DNA of 55,706 bases from Candidatus Uhrbacteria bacterium RIFOXYC2_FULL_47_19 (lineage in GTDB: Bacteria > Patescibacteriota > Patescibacteriia > SG8-24). Shown here in pieces: positions 3,101 through 55,706 of this stretch (position 1 is the stretch's first letter; the number at the start of each line of letters is the position of its first letter). The DNA is taken from positions 1 through 55,706 of the forward strand of contig MGFG01000026.1 of assembly GCA_001791745.1 (NCBI GenBank). Reading direction: 5' to 3'. The position numbers and the translations under genes were made by a program. The notes under the pieces were generated by a model, which was not told where the DNA came from, searched no databases, and was given only the letters and a program-made list of their open reading frames with translations.

Positions 3101-4075
3101 ATGCGTTTTTTGATTTGTGGTTCGGACATCTTTAGATCTAGAAAAAAACTCGCTTTAATACGCGAGCGTTTTAAGCAAACTCGTGATCCGTCCGGATTAA
3201 ATACGGATATTTTTCGAGCTGGTGATCGTACTTCAGTCGAGCTGGCCGAGGCTATACTTACCTACCCGTTTTTAGGTGAACGAAAAATGATCATTGCTGA
3301 TGGTTTTTTGTCACATAATAAAGCAGACCAGGAAGTGATTTTAAGTGCTCTACAACGACAACCAGAAACAACAGTCGCGGTATTTTACGAACCGACAGAT
3401 TTAGCTAATCTTAGTGGCTCTCCCCTACTTCCATTTTTGATTAACGATAGGTTTACCGAGGAATTCAAATCATTAGTTGGTGAACAGGTCACTGGATTCA
3501 TTGCCTCGGAATGTGAGAATTATGGTCTGAAGATAGAGATTAGGGCTTGTACTGAGTTAGCTCAAGCCACCGGAGCTGATTCTTGGCGATTGGTTCAGGA
3601 AATCTCCAAACTCTGTTCATTTGCTGCTGCAAGAGGTGAGCAGGTCATCTCTACTTCAATGATTAAGGAGTTGGTAGTCGGAACTAACGAAGAATCAATT
3701 TTTGATTTTTTAGATGCCTGTTTTGACGGTCGTTCCAGACGTGCTATTCCCCTACTAGATCGATTGATTCAATCCGGAGTGAATGATTTGCAGATTTTGG
3801 CAATGTTACAGCGACAATTGCGGATTTTGATAGGCGCTCGAGATTTATTAAATCGTGGTATTAGTGATCGCCAGACCATTGCTGGAAAGTTGGGTGTTCA
3901 TCCTTACCCCGCTGGTAAGGCTATAGCCTCGGTTCAACAGCTACAACTTACAGACCTAAAAAAAGCCTCTACTGAGTTAGTGGAAATTGAACGTAGATTT
4001 AAGTCTGGGACTGGCAAACTTTTAGCGGAGCTGACTTTGTTTGCTTGTTCAGTTCAACAACCAAGAAGACCTTAA
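3101..4075 (+). CDS. holA: DNA polymerase III delta subunit
   Basis: About 324 aa. PFLGERK, EISKL, IFDFLDA, LGVHPY and a C-terminal K.G motif typical of HolA; converges on rpsT as is common. Confidence 0.9.
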   Translation: MRFLICGSDIFRSRKKLALIRERFKQTRDPSGLNTDIFRAGDRTSVELAEAILTYPFLGERKMIIADGFLSHNKADQEVILSALQRQPETTVAVFYEPTDLANLSGSPLLPFLINDRFTEEFKSLVGEQVTGFIASECENYGLKIEIRACTELAQATGADSWRLVQEISKLCSFAAARGEQVISTSMIKELVVGTNEESIFDFLDACFDGRSRRAIPLLDRLIQSGVNDLQILAMLQRQLRILIGARDLLNRGISDRQTIAGKLGVHPYPAGKAIASVQQLQLTDLKKASTELVEIERRFKSGTGKLLAELTLFACSVQQPRRP

Positions 4076-50128: not shown

Positions 50129-50172
50129 GGTTTCTGTTACATTAAGCTAAATAAGTTTTTCACTTGGTTTTT

Positions 50173-51693
50173 ATGCCGACAAGAAGAGGGATCCAATCCG
50201 AAACGACACATGAAAAAGGATTTAATTCAGAGGTAGATAGGGAATGCGGTGAATCTCCCGTTTCGGCTGACTTTGGTTCCTTTCAAGAAGCCAGAAAGAA
50301 GCTGGGCAAACAACTCTTGGATCGGACACGTGACGAAGAGGAGATGTGTGTTACCTCTCCGGAAGAGGCGGCTGGACTAAAAGTTTTAGCTCGATTCGGT
50401 CCGTTGTCCATCCGTGAAGTGGAAAGCAAGGAAGTCCTGCGTGGAGATGCGAATTTCTCTAAATCCTTGTCGAGTTTTTGCAGCTCGGTTAGAATGTTTC
50501 TGTCTCAAAAAGATAGAGAACACCTGCAGATCTACAGTTTGGTTTCCTATTTGGAACGGTGTGCGGGTTCTGGATACATGGACGAGATAGAATTTGAGTG
50601 TTGGGGACGCGAAGAAAAGACAAATTTCAACAAAAACTTTGAGGTAATCGACAGACAGCGTCGCGGACGTGATTCCATCCGTATCTTTTACGTCAGAAGA
50701 AAAATTGAGGTTGATAGGGTTCGTCTTGAGATGGCGATGAGATTGGTGCAAGAAATCATTTCCGAAAGCGATAAATTACATGACGGCAGGTATCGGGGAA
50801 CGGTGCCTGATTCTGTCATCACGGAAAATAGAAATGTTATCTACAAATTCATCAAAAGTTTTTCTGGAGAGGAGGGGATAGAACTTCCGTGCGTTATGGA
50901 CAGCGTTACGGCTAAGTTCGCTGTAGTCGACGATCGCGTTCTCTCCAAGAGCCGGGAAAGTGAGGAGAAGAAGGATCGACTGGAAGTCAGTTTTGACTTG
51001 AGTCTCCTGACGGAAAAGGAGGTGGGTGAGATTCCTGACGCCCTGCTGCGGCTCGGAAAGATCAGCATACCCAAAAGTAGCCTGTCAGTCCTGATCGGAT
51101 ATAACGGATCGGGTAAGACCACATTGTTGAATTCCCTGCGCGTGGCCGCCAGCCACTTCGGCAGACGTTTAGGAGAGGACTATAGTGACATAGCCTGTGA
51201 TCTTGAGAAAAGAGAGTATTGGAACGGTTCCATACCGACCTTCGTTCCTAGTTTTGCCCGTACCATGGATATCGGTGGTCTCTCGGTTCCGGAAGGTGAG
51301 AATAGCGTTATCTATCTTAATTTTTCGAGATTCGCTCAGAACATAGCGTCACACAACGATTTATCGGCCAACCCACTGTCCAACATGATGAGGAAGCAGA
51401 GCGTCAACCAAGGATCGACAGGCGAATTGCAGTTGGCTTTCTTCGAGGATTCGATAAAAAAGTTTAACTTAGGTGAGTTTAAGGGTCTTTTGCTGATAGA
51501 CGAGCCGGAAAAGGGGCTTGATCCATGGAAGTTGCGGGACATGAAGAGACGGATCAGGGAAATGGCTCCGCAGGCGACCGTTATCGTAGCCACCCATAAT
51601 CCCATGCTGGCCTTCGATAAGGAGATAAGGAGGATAGACCTGCGTTTCCCAGAGAGGGGTTACCACGAGAACCAAGAGGAAGAAATGTTCTGA
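50173..51693 (+). CDS. Protein with C-terminal ABC-type ATPase domain and unknown N-terminal 270 aa
   Basis: Walker A GYNGSGKT, degenerate signature STGE, Walker B LLIDEPE, H-loop VATH. Confidence 0.75.
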   Translation: MPTRRGIQSETTHEKGFNSEVDRECGESPVSADFGSFQEARKKLGKQLLDRTRDEEEMCVTSPEEAAGLKVLARFGPLSIREVESKEVLRGDANFSKSLSSFCSSVRMFLSQKDREHLQIYSLVSYLERCAGSGYMDEIEFECWGREEKTNFNKNFEVIDRQRRGRDSIRIFYVRRKIEVDRVRLEMAMRLVQEIISESDKLHDGRYRGTVPDSVITENRNVIYKFIKSFSGEEGIELPCVMDSVTAKFAVVDDRVLSKSRESEEKKDRLEVSFDLSLLTEKEVGEIPDALLRLGKISIPKSSLSVLIGYNGSGKTTLLNSLRVAASHFGRRLGEDYSDIACDLEKREYWNGSIPTFVPSFARTMDIGGLSVPEGENSVIYLNFSRFAQNIASHNDLSANPLSNMMRKQSVNQGSTGELQLAFFEDSIKKFNLGEFKGLLLIDEPEKGLDPWKLRDMKRRIREMAPQATVIVATHNPMLAFDKEIRRIDLRFPERGYHENQEEEMF

Positions 51694-51754: not shown

Positions 51755-51811
51755 TTCCGCCTCGAACGAAACAGCCGCCACCCGCAAGAGGTGACGGCCG
51801 TTTCATGGAGC
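51755..51811. repeat. 57-bp direct repeat, left copy (target-site-like)
   Basis: 54/57 identical to 54714-54770; contains the tRNA-Gly end TGGAGC and a hairpin. Confidence 0.9.
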
Positions 51812-52163
51812 TGTTTTTATGCGGAAGCTCGAACTTTTTTTGAAGAGAACATTTGAGAAAGTGTTTCATTTCGCTCCGCTTTCGCTCGCAAATTTTTGAG
51901 AAATTTGCGTTTCAAAACAGAAAAATTTTCCTCCAATTTTTTCGATTTCGCGCCCCCCCAATTTTTCAAAAAAGGAAAAGAAAATTTTTGTTTTGGATTT
52001 TTGTGAAACAAAAAGGCGGAAGCGGGGCTACGGCCTACGAATAAAAGGAAAGCGTACTTGACCCACCCAAACCCATTCGCGCACGCTTAAATCAATATAA
52101 CTCCCTTTTGGGATTTTAGCAGGGGTTTAGCGCCTTTTGTAAAATTTAAAAAGGCTTGGCAGC

Positions 52164-52206
52164 TACTTTACTTGACTAAATCACTGCACTATGCTAAAGT
52201 GCCAGT
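52164..52206 (+). promoter_or_regulatory. Leaderless promoter with two overlapping ACTTTA-N6-TAAAGT-like operators
   Basis: TTGACT 52172, 17 bp spacer, TAAAGT 52195, then GCCAGT-ATG; sites ACTTTA-cttgac-TAAATC and ACTGCA-ctatgc-TAAAGT. Confidence 0.7.
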
Positions 52207-52521
52207 ATGGATTGGAATGACAAAGGAAAAGAGCAGTTAATAAAGGCAATTTTATTGCTTAAAAACGCTGATGAAACACAGCGATTTTTGCGTGACTTGA
52301 TGACAGAAAAAGAAATCAAGGAGTTCGCAAAACGACTAAAAGCAGCGGAAATGCTTACAGAAAAAATACCATATTCTACAATCGAAAAAGAGACTGGCTT
52401 AAGTTCAACTACTGTTGCTCGTGTTGCAAAGTGGTTAAATGGAAAAGGCGGTGGCTACAAAATAATTATAAATAAACTCCATCATCATAACTCTATCCAA
52501 TCACGGAGAGGGTTGTCTTGA
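52207..52521 (+). CDS. TrpR-like YerC/YecD (HisR-type) repressor with C-terminal His3
   Basis: FLRDLMT..E......RL.AA.ML, Y..I..ETG.SSTTVARV helix-turn-helix. Confidence 0.9.
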   Translation: MDWNDKGKEQLIKAILLLKNADETQRFLRDLMTEKEIKEFAKRLKAAEMLTEKIPYSTIEKETGLSSTTVARVAKWLNGKGGGYKIIINKLHHHNSIQSRRGLS

Positions 52522-52581
52522 TGTAATTTCTCATCATCGCATGAACATAACCCCCTCCGTAATTGGAGGGGGTTTACGTTT
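52480..52581 (+). promoter_or_regulatory. His-codon transcription attenuator embedded in the repressor 3' end
   Basis: CAT CAT CAT 52480-52488; mutually exclusive 1:2, 2:3 (13/14 pairs) and 3:4 (10 bp) helices. Confidence 0.75.
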
Positions 52582-52632
52582 GCCTACCCACAATAAAACG
52601 GTAAACACAGTTCTTTAAAAAAGGAGAGAATC

Positions 52633-53520
52633 ATGCAGAAGCTCATCAGTTACTTCACAGACGGAATCTCGTCGGGGACGCTTCAGACAATTGGAGCGGA
52701 AGTCGAAACGCAGTTTGTGGACAAGGACGGCAAAGCAGTCCAGACCCAAACGTCTCAACAAATGTTGAGACACCTCGCCGAAAATGGTTGGGAAGTTGAT
52801 TGCCGTAAAGACAATCTCATCACAACCCTTGTTGATCAGAACGACAACAAAATTTTCTACGAGCTTGGCCGTCACAACATGGAGGTTTCAACGGCGGCCT
52901 CAACTTCCGCTTGCGTCCTCGATGTTATGCGGAAATGTCTTGCTCAACTCTACGAGTCCGCTCGAAGAGTTGGTGCGGAGCCGTTCTTCGCACCGATACT
53001 ATTTGGCGAAGAAGACCTACTGGTCATTCCCGACGAGAGAGACGCAGTCTGGTTGGAATTGGACGGACGAAACGCCCTTGCTCCGCTTGCGCGTACGTCA
53101 TCGGTTCAATTCACAATCTCGGTTTCTCCGCAGGATGCCATGAAAATCTTGAACAAGTTCGGGAAAAAGGTCGGTTCGTTCTTGACGGATTTTCCGCAAG
53201 ACGCGGTTTGGAAACGATACATCGTGGACTCGTCCGCGAAATATCTTTCTAACCGGTATGGTGGTCCTCTGGCATTCGAGTCGTTGGAGGATTACTGCCA
53301 AGCTCTTGTCCGACACGATGTTGTTCAAGGAGCGCGTCTCGTGCCGTTTCAGGATGTTAGTAATCTGGAGATATCTCTCTACCTACGCAGTATTTGGTGG
53401 CACTTCAGGCTCAAGCGTTATGGCAACGCTTTGTGCATTGAGGTACGCCCCATGGCTCGTAGGACAGACGAACAATTCCAACACCAACTAGATAAGGTGT
53501 TGGCAATCGTCTGCGCATAG
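52633..53520 (+). CDS. Glutamate--cysteine ligase (GCS2)-like carboxylate-amine ligase
   Basis: IGAEVE, YELG..NME, SSVQF, W..R.K, IEVR; AAGGAG Shine-Dalgarno. Confidence 0.65.
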   Translation: MQKLISYFTDGISSGTLQTIGAEVETQFVDKDGKAVQTQTSQQMLRHLAENGWEVDCRKDNLITTLVDQNDNKIFYELGRHNMEVSTAASTSACVLDVMRKCLAQLYESARRVGAEPFFAPILFGEEDLLVIPDERDAVWLELDGRNALAPLARTSSVQFTISVSPQDAMKILNKFGKKVGSFLTDFPQDAVWKRYIVDSSAKYLSNRYGGPLAFESLEDYCQALVRHDVVQGARLVPFQDVSNLEISLYLRSIWWHFRLKRYGNALCIEVRPMARRTDEQFQHQLDKVLAIVCA

Positions 53521-53546: not shown

Positions 53547-54374
53547 CTACACAAGGCTTTCTTTTTCTTCGCCTAAAAGAAAAACTTCGTCGCCAACTTT
53601 TGTGCCTTTGTGAGCAAAGAGTATTAGACTTTGCTTTGAAGTTTTTACTTCTTCTTGTCCGTCAATTCCGATAAGTTGATTTTCTTTCAACACCTCAAAA
53701 TTCTCAAATAGCTTCGACAAAGTAAATTTATCTGTTTTTGCGAAATATTTTTTGAACATTCGAACGTAGGCCTGTTTTTGCGGAATAAGATTATTTTTTA
53801 TGTGTCCTCTCGCTTTCAGAAAAGCAAAAACACTTTCTTCCGCTATTTTTATTGATTGTGGATCTTTCATGTAGCCACACTCCAAGCATATTCCCACTTT
53901 CCCAATACTGTTCATGTAATAATCTGTTCCACCCGGTTCTACTTTGTCGAAGCCAGACACTACAAGGTTAATTGGAAAAAATTTTACAATTTCTTTTGCA
54001 TTTGCTTCGCAAATTGCAAACGCCTTACTGTTTGGGATAGAGCTTGCATGTATATCGAGAAGTGCCTCGGCTTCGTTAAGATAATTTTTCAGAAATTGGG
54101 CGCGACCATATTCATAACTTTCTTTCTCACTTGTGGTAAATTGTTCATTGCGATTGAACATTCTATTCAAGTTGACTTCTGTATATCGTTTGTTCGTTTC
54201 AATCGCTCGCGGGTTTCCATAGCCAAATAAAACTGTCCCGCGCTCAATTTCGAGGTTTGGTAAAATTTTTTCCAATGCTTCCACTCCGCATTTTTCGTCA
54301 CCATGCACACCAACTAGAACGATACTGATCGTCCCTTTTTCTCTACCGTTGAGTTGAATTATTTTTTCAAACAT
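53547..54374 (-). CDS. Succinylglutamate desuccinylase/aspartoacylase family Zn hydrolase
   Basis: GVHGDE, NLNR, LDIH, LECG. Confidence 0.9.
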   Translation of the reverse strand: MFEKIIQLNGREKGTISIVLVGVHGDEKCGVEALEKILPNLEIERGTVLFGYGNPRAIETNKRYTEVNLNRMFNRNEQFTTSEKESYEYGRAQFLKNYLNEAEALLDIHASSIPNSKAFAICEANAKEIVKFFPINLVVSGFDKVEPGGTDYYMNSIGKVGICLECGYMKDPQSIKIAEESVFAFLKARGHIKNNLIPQKQAYVRMFKKYFAKTDKFTLSKLFENFEVLKENQLIGIDGQEEVKTSKQSLILFAHKGTKVGDEVFLLGEEKESLV

Positions 54375-54409
54375 ACTGGCACTTTAACAAACTAAAGCAA
54401 CCAGGTCAA
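54375..54409 (-). promoter_or_regulatory. Leaderless promoter with overlapping operator
   Basis: Minus strand TTGACC-17 bp-TAAAGT-GCCAGT-ATG; operator ACTTTA-acaaac-TAAAGC at 54381-54398. Confidence 0.7.
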
Positions 54410-54713
54410 GAGGAGTGAATGCCGTTGGGAATTTCGCAATGTCGCCAGCGTTGGGTTGGGTGGGACAATGGCGACCAAAAGTATAAATGGCTATAATAAT
54501 TGCTTCTGCCGTCCAGCTCTTTCGAAAAAGAGACTGGACTTCCAAAACAAAAATTTTCTTTTCCTTTTTTGAAAAATTGGGGGGGGGCGCGAAATCGAAA
54601 AAATTGGAGGAAAATTTTTCTGTTTTGAAACGCAAATTTCTCAAAAATTTGCGAGCGAAAGCGGAGCGAAATGAAACACTTTCTCAAATGTTCTCTTCAA
54701 AAAAAGTTCGAGC

Positions 54714-54783
54714 TTCCGCCTCGAACGAAACGGCCGCCACCCGCAAGAGGTGACGGCCATTTCGTGGAGCGGGTGACGGGAAT
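54714..54783. repeat. Right copy of the 57-bp direct repeat, extended by a 19-bp duplicate of the tRNA-Gly 3' end
   Basis: 54765-54783 TGGAGCGGGTGACGGGAAT equals 54973-54991. Confidence 0.9.
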
Positions 54784-54972: not shown

Positions 54973-55046
54973 TGGAGCGGGTGACGGGAATCGAACCCAC
55001 GTAGCCACCTTGGAAGAGTGGTGTTCTACCATTGAACTACACCCGC
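54973..55046 (-). tRNA. tRNA-Gly(TCC)
   Basis: GCGGGTG acceptor, anticodon loop CT-TCC-AA, U73 discriminator, CCA. Confidence 0.95.
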
Positions 55047-55076
55047 TTATTTTTATTTACTTCAATAACAGTTGAG

Positions 55077-55152
55077 TGGTCGGGGCGGGGAGATTCGAAC
55101 TCCCAATCCCTTGCTCCCAAAGCAAGTGCCTTAGCCATTAGGCCACGCCCCG
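55077..55152 (-). tRNA. tRNA-Pro(TGG)
   Basis: CGGGGCG acceptor, CTTGC-TTTGGGA-GCAAG, CCA. Confidence 0.95.
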
Positions 55153-55185
55153 TCGCAACAAATCTTAGCAAAAATCGACTTTCCA

Positions 55186-55222
55186 TGGTGCCGAGGGCCA
55201 GGATTGAACTGGCGACACGAGG
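55186..55222 (-). repeat. Duplicate 3' half of tRNA-Phe
   Basis: 37 bp identical to 55250-55286. Confidence 0.9.
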
Positions 55223-55249
55223 CCCCAGCGAAGAACTTTTTCCAGATCG

Positions 55250-55324
55250 TGGTGCCGAGGGCCAGGATTGAACTGGCGACACGAGGATTTTCAGTCCTCT
55301 GCTCTACCACTGAGCTACCTCGGC
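55250..55324 (-). tRNA. tRNA-Phe(GAA)
   Basis: GCCGAGG acceptor, GAGGA-CTGAAAA-TCCTC, CCA. Confidence 0.95.
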
Positions 55325-55417: not shown

Positions 55418-55529
55418 ATTACGGAAAGCCGATTTTTTATCTTTTCAAGTTGACCATTTTGTTTTTCGGGTTAGATAGTCAGAGTTGATAATCGACTTAA
55501 ACTATCGATCTATCTAGCTAGCCTTGATC

Positions 55530-55706
<177 letters not shown>

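Follow-up and report, generated by a model that had tools for sequence, protein, structure and literature searches.

Can a gene for a transcriptional repressor also serve, through its own last codons, as the leader peptide of an attenuator that senses the same nutrient? This question is raised by hisR, a gene for a 104-aa repressor of the YerC/TrpR family located at 52207..52521 (+ strand) in a 55,706-nt stretch of contig MGFG01000026.1 of Candidatus Uhrbacteria bacterium RIFOXYC2_FULL_47_19. This whole stretch is referred to below as the window, and the source genome comprises 1.04 Mb in 34 contigs, with a completeness score of 100%. The original prediction, made from the letters of the window without database searches, held that repression and attenuation are combined in this one gene. 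That idea is supported by the covariation of the RNA helices, the conservation of the His codons, the existence of free-standing leaders and the presence of an operator. On these comparative grounds, the locus is probably a transcription attenuator that senses histidine by means of the ribosome, with the HisR repressor gene acting as its leader open reading frame (ORF).

Overlapping helices at the 3' end of hisR

Judging from its family matches, the protein is a HisR/YerC-type member of the TrpR family: Pfam PF01371 covers residues 9-91 (E 3.3e-20), and the NCBIfam model TIGR02531 (yecD_yerC) matches above the family cut-off (E 7.9e-21). The PDB entries 3frw, 3kor and 3g1c, the last with an E-value of 7.7e-12, align to residues 7-93 only. 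As the alignments to these solved homologues end at residue 93, the C-terminal tail lies outside the TrpR fold. Direct reading of the window gives the C-terminus as ...KLHHHNSIQSRRGLS, followed by a TGA stop at 52519-52521, and the TrpR/YerC-like ORF with a run of His at its end that had been described is borne out by both family matches and by the sequence itself. The run consists of CAT CAT CAT (52480..52488, + strand). These are the only His codons of the ORF, they sit 10 codons before the stop, they are conserved in homologues, and they constitute the proposed stall site; the last 14 codons of hisR most likely serve as the leader peptide.

Four segments on the + strand, each located exactly where it had been claimed, surround the end of the gene: segment 1 (ATAACTCTATCC, 52487..52498), segment 2 (GGAGAGGGTTGT, 52505..52516), segment 3 (ATAACCCCCTCCGT, 52547..52560) and segment 4 (GGAGGGGGTT, 52565..52574). 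Counting by hand gave 11 of 12 pairs for helix 1:2 (2 G-U), 13 of 14 for 2:3 (1 G-U) and 10 of 10 for 3:4, in agreement with the pairings of the original prediction. The antiterminator formed by segments 2 and 3 is longer than had been seen. In the RNAalifold consensus, its 5' strand spans 52497..52519, the last position being the first nucleotide of the stop codon, while its 3' strand, delimited by the consensus and by covariation, spans 52544..52566 and includes the 5' arm of the terminator. This helix includes CCAAT:ATTGG and has an energy of -28.9 kcal/mol. The intrinsic terminator (52549..52583, + strand) pairs 52549-52559 with 52564-52574 in a G+C-rich stem of 11 bp closed by the loop TAAT and followed by TTTACGTTTG; its exact hairpin occurs only once in the genome. 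An ATG overlapping the hisR stop codon (TGATGTAA) was also considered as a possible start-stop mini-ORF and was dropped, as it is not conserved.

Folding of 52470-52600 with RNAfold returned exactly hairpins 1:2 and 3:4, with an energy of -42.0 kcal/mol (z -5.98) that no dinucleotide shuffle out of 200 equalled. Taken separately, the energies are -11.6 kcal/mol for 1:2, -20.9 kcal/mol for 3:4 and -28.9 kcal/mol for 2:3, and the full minimum free energy (MFE) fold, 1:2 plus 3:4, has -40.7 kcal/mol. The outcome depends on which part of the RNA is available: 2:3 forms when the RNA is folded only to 52566, and 3:4 forms when it is folded from 52533 onward. These energies fit a kinetic switch.

The switch would operate as follows. 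Transcription would start at a HisR-repressible promoter, probably at the ATG itself, and the lead ribosome would trail the polymerase across the 104 codons. In ribosome profiling, the footprint of a ribosome extends about 12 nt beyond the A site. When charged tRNA-His is plentiful, the ribosome would reach the stop codon, cover the RNA to about 52533 and mask segment 2; segment 3 would then pair with segment 4 to form the terminator, and hisR alone would be transcribed. When charged tRNA-His is scarce, the ribosome would stall at the His codons, cover the RNA to about 52492-52498 and mask segment 1, leaving 52497-52519 free to pair with 52544-52566 before segment 4 exists. Transcription would in that case continue into the ligase-like gene downstream. 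Two sensors would be placed in series, with free histidine acting through HisR and its operator, and charged tRNA-His acting through the ribosome. The stalling, the coupling of transcription and translation, the leaderless start, the footprint applied here and the response to histidine are what we infer from this arrangement.

Relatives of hisR allowed the helices to be compared across loci. By protein search, homologues were detected in 13 of 61 related genomes, including the genome studied here, and in 100 of 401 genomes of a phylum-wide sample. A scan of species-representative genomes added a set of 27 loci, most of them from Patescibacteria or candidate phyla, some labelled 'bacterium' and three bearing other taxon labels. 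Most of the close homologues and many of the distant ones share a common architecture, consisting of a His run, about 10 codons, a stop and, 20-60 nt further on, a G+C-rich hairpin with a T tract. Two alignments were made from such loci, A1 with 28 loci and A3 with 45, of which 4 rows are out of register. The original prediction had proposed an alignment of homologous 3' ends as its check; in these alignments, the His runs are kept and the helices covary.

When given A1, RNAalifold selected the antiterminator unprompted. In this alignment, 93.4% of its cells are paired, 13 of its 19 pairs (68 cells) have changed on both sides, and slid partners reach at most 59.3% pairing. The covariation score is 0.444 vs 0.192 for shuffled alignments, and none of 500 shuffles reaches any of five measures, although such counts are not probabilities, the aligned loci being kin. 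In A3, the pairing is 88.8%, 18 of 19 pairs (142 cells) have changed on both sides, and the score of 0.487 (0.224 shuffled) is again reached by 0 of 500 shuffles. For terminator 3:4, A1 shows 88.9% pairing, with changes on both sides at 6 of 11 pairs. Covariation thus supports an antiterminator that is mutually exclusive with the terminator. An alignment-free check was made on 51 non-identical tail-bearing loci, in which the last 33 nt of the ORF were paired with the 5' arm of the terminator. A terminator-like hairpin lies within 130 nt past the stop in 48 of them, and in 37 of these 48 the ORF tail out-pairs every other window of its own gene (median z -3.4). At the locus studied here, the last 33 nt of hisR pair with this arm better than all 83 other windows of the same gene.

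These data bear directly on a first alternative, namely that hairpin 3:4 is an ordinary hisR terminator or a palindromic DNA site to which the repressor binds, and that the complementarity of the tail has no function. The hairpin is indeed placed where a gene-end terminator would be expected, and the attenuator screen, as described in the available text of PMC2965389, discards such terminators by design. However, neither the compensatory changes at 18 of the 19 antiterminator pairs nor the inability of any of the 83 other windows of hisR to pair as well is expected of an ordinary terminator. Moreover, the arms differ in sequence between loci (CCCCCTCC, CCCCTTCTC, CCTCTTCCC), which fits an RNA rather than a fixed operator, and the true HisR operator is a different motif, found at promoters. 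The 3:4 palindrome was ruled out as a DNA operator on the grounds that its arms vary with pairing kept and that the HisR operator motif differs. As a whole, this alternative is highly improbable.

Histidine codons, free-standing leaders and the HisR operator

The codons of the tail were compared in the 41 in-register rows of A3. The three positions of the run encode His in 36, 33 and 31 rows, respectively, with CAT and CAC interchanging, and no other amino acid of the tail is kept as well as His. The codons past the run vary in the amino acid that they specify (N/S/A/H/D, I/S/A/T/F, R/G/E, R/K) while their pairing is kept. The stop codon stands in a single column in 38 of the 41 rows. Two loci (L033 and L051) have an early stop, and segment 2 is nevertheless kept downstream of it. 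This pattern supports the view that His is conserved at the level of codons, and the remainder of the tail at the level of RNA.

The same bias is observed in larger sets of proteins. Among the best 120 of 1008 homologues with E <=1e-5, the last 20 residues contain HHH in 109 proteins and HH in 117, and the rest of the protein contains 1 His in 10,473 residues. Among the best 150 of 1722 cluster representatives (E <=0.001), 140 are single-domain proteins of at most 160 aa. In these 140, HH occurs within the last 25 residues of 49 representatives and elsewhere in 4, its median distance is 10 residues from the end irrespective of the distance to the domain, and His makes up 5.7% of the tails vs 0.8% of the bodies. 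One member of the His-tailed cluster representatives is labelled Gracilibacteria.

The key test of the proposal that the tail is a leader peptide is provided by separate short His leaders. In seven loci (L072, L079, L081, L086, L094, L097 and L101), hisR has no tail, and a distinct short ORF downstream of it encodes HH or HHH within a few codons of its stop. Among doubled residues in short ORFs downstream, HH is the most frequent across the 43 loci without an HH tail, with 10 loci vs 9 for LL and 8 for SS; L044, at least, appears to be a spurious case among the ten. A covariance model, R1, was built on A3 with the antiterminator. It gives a single match in the genome studied here (E 9.3e-24) and matches in 21 of 101 genomes, this one (G000) included, and its strong matches in G009, G040, G044, G051 and G056 overlap hisR 3' ends that the protein search had found. 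Ten further matches were read individually. In three of them (L122, L125 and L129), the element lies behind an ORF of 22-28 codons containing HH, HHH or HQHNH, and there is no hisR upstream. In L131, a tail-less hisR is followed by a separate leader ORF of 30 codons with the element, five loci (L123, L126, L127, L128 and L130) have the fused form, and L124 is a weak match with a single His only. Given that the RNA element is shared by free-standing His ORFs, the tail behaves like a leader-peptide module appended to the repressor ORF.

The free-standing form is also relevant to a second alternative, in which the switch is set by a trans-acting factor or ligand (HisR, a small RNA or a metabolite) and the His run is a metal- or ligand-binding tail of the repressor. 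Metal binding by C-terminal His runs is known from other proteins, and a His-rich peptide of 66 aa is encoded downstream in locus L034. On the other hand, the element and its His run also occur in ORFs of 22-30 codons that lack the repressor domain, and the spacing of the run is fixed with respect to the stop, not to the domain. The helix of the antiterminator is almost unbroken and offers no conserved pocket of unpaired bases. No Rfam family matched: only tRNAs were found at the gathering score, and the best E-value at a permissive setting (E up to 10) was 0.42. Neither the His_leader family (RF00514) nor a T-box matched at either setting. Control by a trans-acting factor or ligand is accordingly regarded as quite unlikely.

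A third alternative accepts a ribosome-driven switch and supposes that it reports the general status of translation or coupling rather than histidine specifically. The helices and the fixed stop show only that the position of the ribosome matters, there are just three His codons, with one or none adjacent in some loci, and the AGA, CGG and GGG codons that are abundant in segment 2 could slow ribosomes as well. Against this, the tails diverge apart from His, the sole amino acid that they conserve, and HH is enriched near the stop throughout the family. Free-standing leaders carry HH or HHH too, HH leads the doubled residues in the short ORFs downstream of hisR genes without an HH tail, and hisG, hisD and hisS are found among the neighbours in relatives. 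A switch responding to general translation status therefore appears unlikely, and histidine remains the probable signal of the attenuator.

The promoter of hisR carries the site through which the repressor would act. A promoter scan identified TTGACT-17-TAAAGT with TG, the -35 box TTGACT being at 52172..52177 (+ strand), and nearly all related loci have a TTGAC box at the equivalent place. Directly 3' of this box is a HisR operator, CACTGCACTATGCTAAAGTG (52182..52201, + strand), which overlaps the -10 box TAAAGT (52195-52200). It agrees with 12 of the 14 specified positions of the HisR operator consensus, the 20-bp palindrome cacTTTAnnnnnnTAAAgtg given in the main text of PMC9413887, a score equalled by 1 of 200 shuffles. 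In most of the 36 loci scanned, the operator scores 12-14 of 14 and occupies the same -25 position relative to the ATG. According to the main text of the same paper (Ashniev et al. 2022, PMC9413887), HisR is by definition the orthologue of B. subtilis YerC, and histidine has been confirmed in vitro as its co-repressor. The identification of the protein as HisR is backed by the presence of this published operator on its own promoter and by the hisG, hisD and hisS neighbours in relatives. No HisR operator was found upstream of the three stand-alone leaders L122, L125 and L129, where the best sites score 8-9 of 14 and the promoter-like sequences are ordinary.

A second HisR operator, TGCTTTAGTTTGTTAAAGTG (54380..54399, - strand), also scores 12 of 14 and lies 5 nt before the ATG of an AstE/AspA-like gene further downstream in the window. 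The promoter of that gene repeats the layout of the hisR promoter, TTGAC-operator-ccagtATG, as a near copy. On the basis of this site, the AstE/AspA-like gene is predicted to be a second target of HisR. Only five places in the genome have an operator with at most 2 mismatches, and two of these are the hisR and AstE/AspA-like promoters of the window; a genome-wide scan allowing up to 3 mismatches showed no enrichment (30 matches per strand vs 42 for a reversed control). Both promoters end with ...TAAAGTGccagtATG. As the -10 box ends 6 nt before the ATG and a Shine-Dalgarno (SD) sequence is missing at both genes, their mRNAs are probably leaderless.

Several observations weigh against the proposed attenuator and define its less secure parts. 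The U tract TTTACGTTTG is interrupted and weak, as its earlier description as modest already implied, and the consensus terminator scan makes no call after 3:4. Once segment 4 is present, the terminator stays the MFE fold even when segment 1 is masked, which means that the switch must be kinetic and rest on the order of folding. In RNA that extends only through segment 3, and with no ribosome, 2:3 is preferred over 1:2 (-23.7 vs -11.6 kcal/mol), and the role of 1:2 is consequently uncertain. This hairpin, the putative anti-antiterminator, is the weakest part of the model. It overlaps the regulatory codons and is present in the MFE fold, with a weak energy of -11.6 kcal/mol. In A1, 84.1% of its cells are paired, and 6 of 11 pairs (13 cells) have changed on both sides, a weaker covariation; in A3, 78.4% are paired and 10 of 11 pairs have changed on both sides, a count reached by 49 of 500 shuffles. 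In the alignment-free check, 11 of the 48 loci have at least one window that pairs as well as the tail, and L008, L048, L060 and L069 are clear failures. The relatedness of the loci means that the counts overstate their independence. A search for sequencing runs containing this stretch listed no RNA run. There are only three His codons at this locus, and seven tail-bearing loci (L005, L006, L023, L028, L034, L044 and L048) lack adjacent HH. Finally, the gene under control has no known link to histidine, and the association of hisR with histidine genes that relatives show is not seen in the window.

The putatively controlled gene and the surrounding possible cassette

Between the terminator and the controlled gene, the promoter scan found no promoter-like site. 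Directly after the terminator, a further hairpin, GTTTGCC / loop TACCCACAATAAAAC / GGTAAAC (52578..52606, + strand), was found by eye in about 17 of 94 loci, and its 5' arm is the U tract of the terminator. Its stem shows compensatory changes, and the start of its loop, TACC, is conserved (TACCC in the window). A conserved GTTCYTT follows 3' of this hairpin, a few bases 5' of the SD; in the window, it reads GTTCTTT and stands just before the SD region AAGGAGAG of the controlled gene (52621..52628, + strand). This hairpin may form a second, translational layer of control.

The controlled gene (52633..53520, + strand) encodes a protein of 295 aa with no Pfam or NCBIfam match. It has 287 homologues, of which every named one is a 'hypothetical protein', and PF04107 is found on two. 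An AlphaFold model built from 40 sequences has a pLDDT of 95.0 and a pTM of 0.91. The top Foldseek match of this model is a plant glutamate-cysteine ligase (2gwc, E 5.8e-10, TMq 0.68-0.74), and E. coli GshA, YbdK (1r8g) and glutamine synthetases are found below it. The modelled structure would make this protein a compact carboxylate-amine ligase with the glutamate-cysteine-ligase/glutamine-synthetase fold.

In relatives, the position downstream of hisR is occupied by various genes, his genes among them. In L110, the genes after hisR are HisG (E 2.7e-45) and then HisD (E 2.5e-161), and in L105 a leader and then HisG. hisR precedes a radical-SAM-like gene and HisS in L106, and an M20 peptidase, a GNAT gene and HisS in L116. 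In L109, the hisR leader is followed by an AstE/AspA gene and then by a GNAT gene. The genome studied here gave no match to HisG or HisD; hisS is present, and no His leader was found in front of it. A toxin-antitoxin reading, suggested by a small helix-turn-helix gene followed by a GNAT gene, was dropped in view of the variety of genes found downstream and of the consistent association with his genes.

Two of the downstream products deserve description. One recurrent product is a GNAT acetyltransferase that lacks a specific family assignment and contains an inserted CxxC...CxxC motif resembling a zinc ribbon (FGGEPWNEG.xCPxC); it is found in L002, L003, L018, L023, L025, L028, L029, L031, L032, L035 and L116, in the last of these between the M20 peptidase and hisS. 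In L034, the gene past the attenuator (3417-3614) encodes the 66-aa peptide mentioned above, which is extremely rich in His and Asp and would be an odd cargo for a histidine-starvation switch.

Convergent to the ligase-like gene in the window is the AstE/AspA-family deacylase-like gene (53547..54374, - strand; Pfam PF24827, E 1.4e-20). Together with hisR, these genes form a HisR module of 2.5 kb that is bracketed by two types of repeat. Inverted repeats of about 175 nt (51821-51994 and 54546-54719) are 90% complementary ungapped and 99% by BLAST, and a direct repeat of 57 nt (51755-51811 and 54714-54770) is 95% identical. No other copy of the bracketing repeat was found in the genome. This arrangement suggests that the HisR module is a mobile or invertible cassette, and a mobile cassette fits both the patchy spread of hisR among the related genomes (13 of 61) and the 76-86% identity of hisR to that of genomes from other families. 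Just upstream of the left inverted repeat, 50164-51693 (+ strand) encodes a 509-aa AAA_21/ABC-type ATPase protein, which is AbiEii-like (Pfam E 2.2e-14). On the other side, three tRNA genes (54976-55324, - strand) are followed at the end of the window by repeated units (55510-55706) whose translations recur in several frames.

A wider reading that joins these observations can be offered only tentatively. The whole hisR transcript, with one promoter, one ORF and one attenuator, could be a single leaderless sensor RNA for both free histidine and charged tRNA-His, and the fused form could descend from free-standing His leaders that were joined to hisR when the stop codon separating the two was lost. 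Rather than biosynthesis, the output in Patescibacteria that are auxotrophic for histidine would then be a horizontally moving cassette, bracketed here by the inverted repeats, with a ligase of the glutamate-cysteine-ligase fold, an AstE/AspA deacylase and, at other loci, zinc-ribbon GNATs and M20 peptidases; such a cassette could salvage or sense host-derived histidine.

Relation to known attenuators

The proposed switch has implications for the way in which attenuators are searched for. The attenuator screen of Naville and Gautheret (2010, PMC2965389) discards terminators near an upstream gene, according to its available text, and attenuators of the hisR type would thus be hidden from such screens. 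In the literature, including the main text of PMC9413887 and the available text of PMC2965389, we found no report of a repressor ORF acting as a leader or of attenuators in Patescibacteria; the main text on HisR and His-leader attenuators (PMC9413887) names no Patescibacteria, and its supplements might list more. If the reading given here is correct, gene-end terminators dropped by published screens can hide switches, and RNA structure can dictate the C-terminal tails of proteins. Ribosome-mediated attenuation, and hence close coupling of transcription and translation, would reach the Candidate Phyla Radiation, a group whose regulation is almost entirely uncharted. A set of uncharacterized enzymes would be marked as histidine-starvation genes in organisms unable to make histidine. 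This would provide a concrete handle on how these episymbionts sense their nutrient supply, for the testing of which small reporter constructs suffice.

Leader-peptide attenuation is defined in textbooks by short dedicated leaders, and here the ORF of a functional transcription factor appears to play that part. With the his operon leader (hisL, RF00514) and the trp leader, the locus shares the tandem regulatory codons located just before or inside segment 1, the three overlapping helices, of which 1:2 is putative here, beside 2:3 and 3:4, the placement of the stop so that a ribosome terminating there would mask segment 2, and the terminator with its U tract. It differs from both in that its leader ORF is a complete repressor of 104 codons rather than a dedicated peptide of 14-16 codons. 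It differs from hisL, which carries seven His codons vs three here, also in the lack of a sequence match to RF00514, in a controlled gene that does not belong to histidine biosynthesis, and in a host that gave no HisG or HisD match. In short, tandem His codons, a downstream terminator and a covarying antiterminator were found, as in his and trp attenuators, and a short dedicated ORF was not; such ORFs do exist in relatives.

The combination of two controls recalls the E. coli trp operon, in which TrpR senses free Trp at the promoter and the trpL attenuator senses charged tRNA, in series. In both cases, a repressor of the TrpR family and a leader-peptide attenuator would control one transcript. 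Unlike in E. coli, the repressor gene is here a part of the controlled transcript and itself serves as leader, and the promoter is the repressor's own. In this respect, the locus resembles the B. subtilis pyr operon, where pyrR comes first and attenuators are located in the leader and between pyrR, pyrP and pyrB, so that the gene for the regulator is the first cistron and is followed by a terminator/antiterminator switch within the operon. The pyr switches depend on the binding of PyrR to RNA, whereas here the position of the ribosome would set the switch, and the regulator's own codons would be the sensor.

A further comparison is with the Firmicutes. The HisR regulons described in the main text of PMC9413887 share their repressor family and operator consensus with the locus studied here. 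According to that text, the His-leader attenuators of Firmicutes have three to five His codons, are located in separate short ORFs, and occur only in lineages lacking HisR. In contrast to the attenuators covered in the available texts of PMC9413887 and PMC2965389, the His attenuator proposed here coexists with HisR and is fused to it, such that one gene would both make the sensor of free histidine and itself be the sensor of charged tRNA-His.

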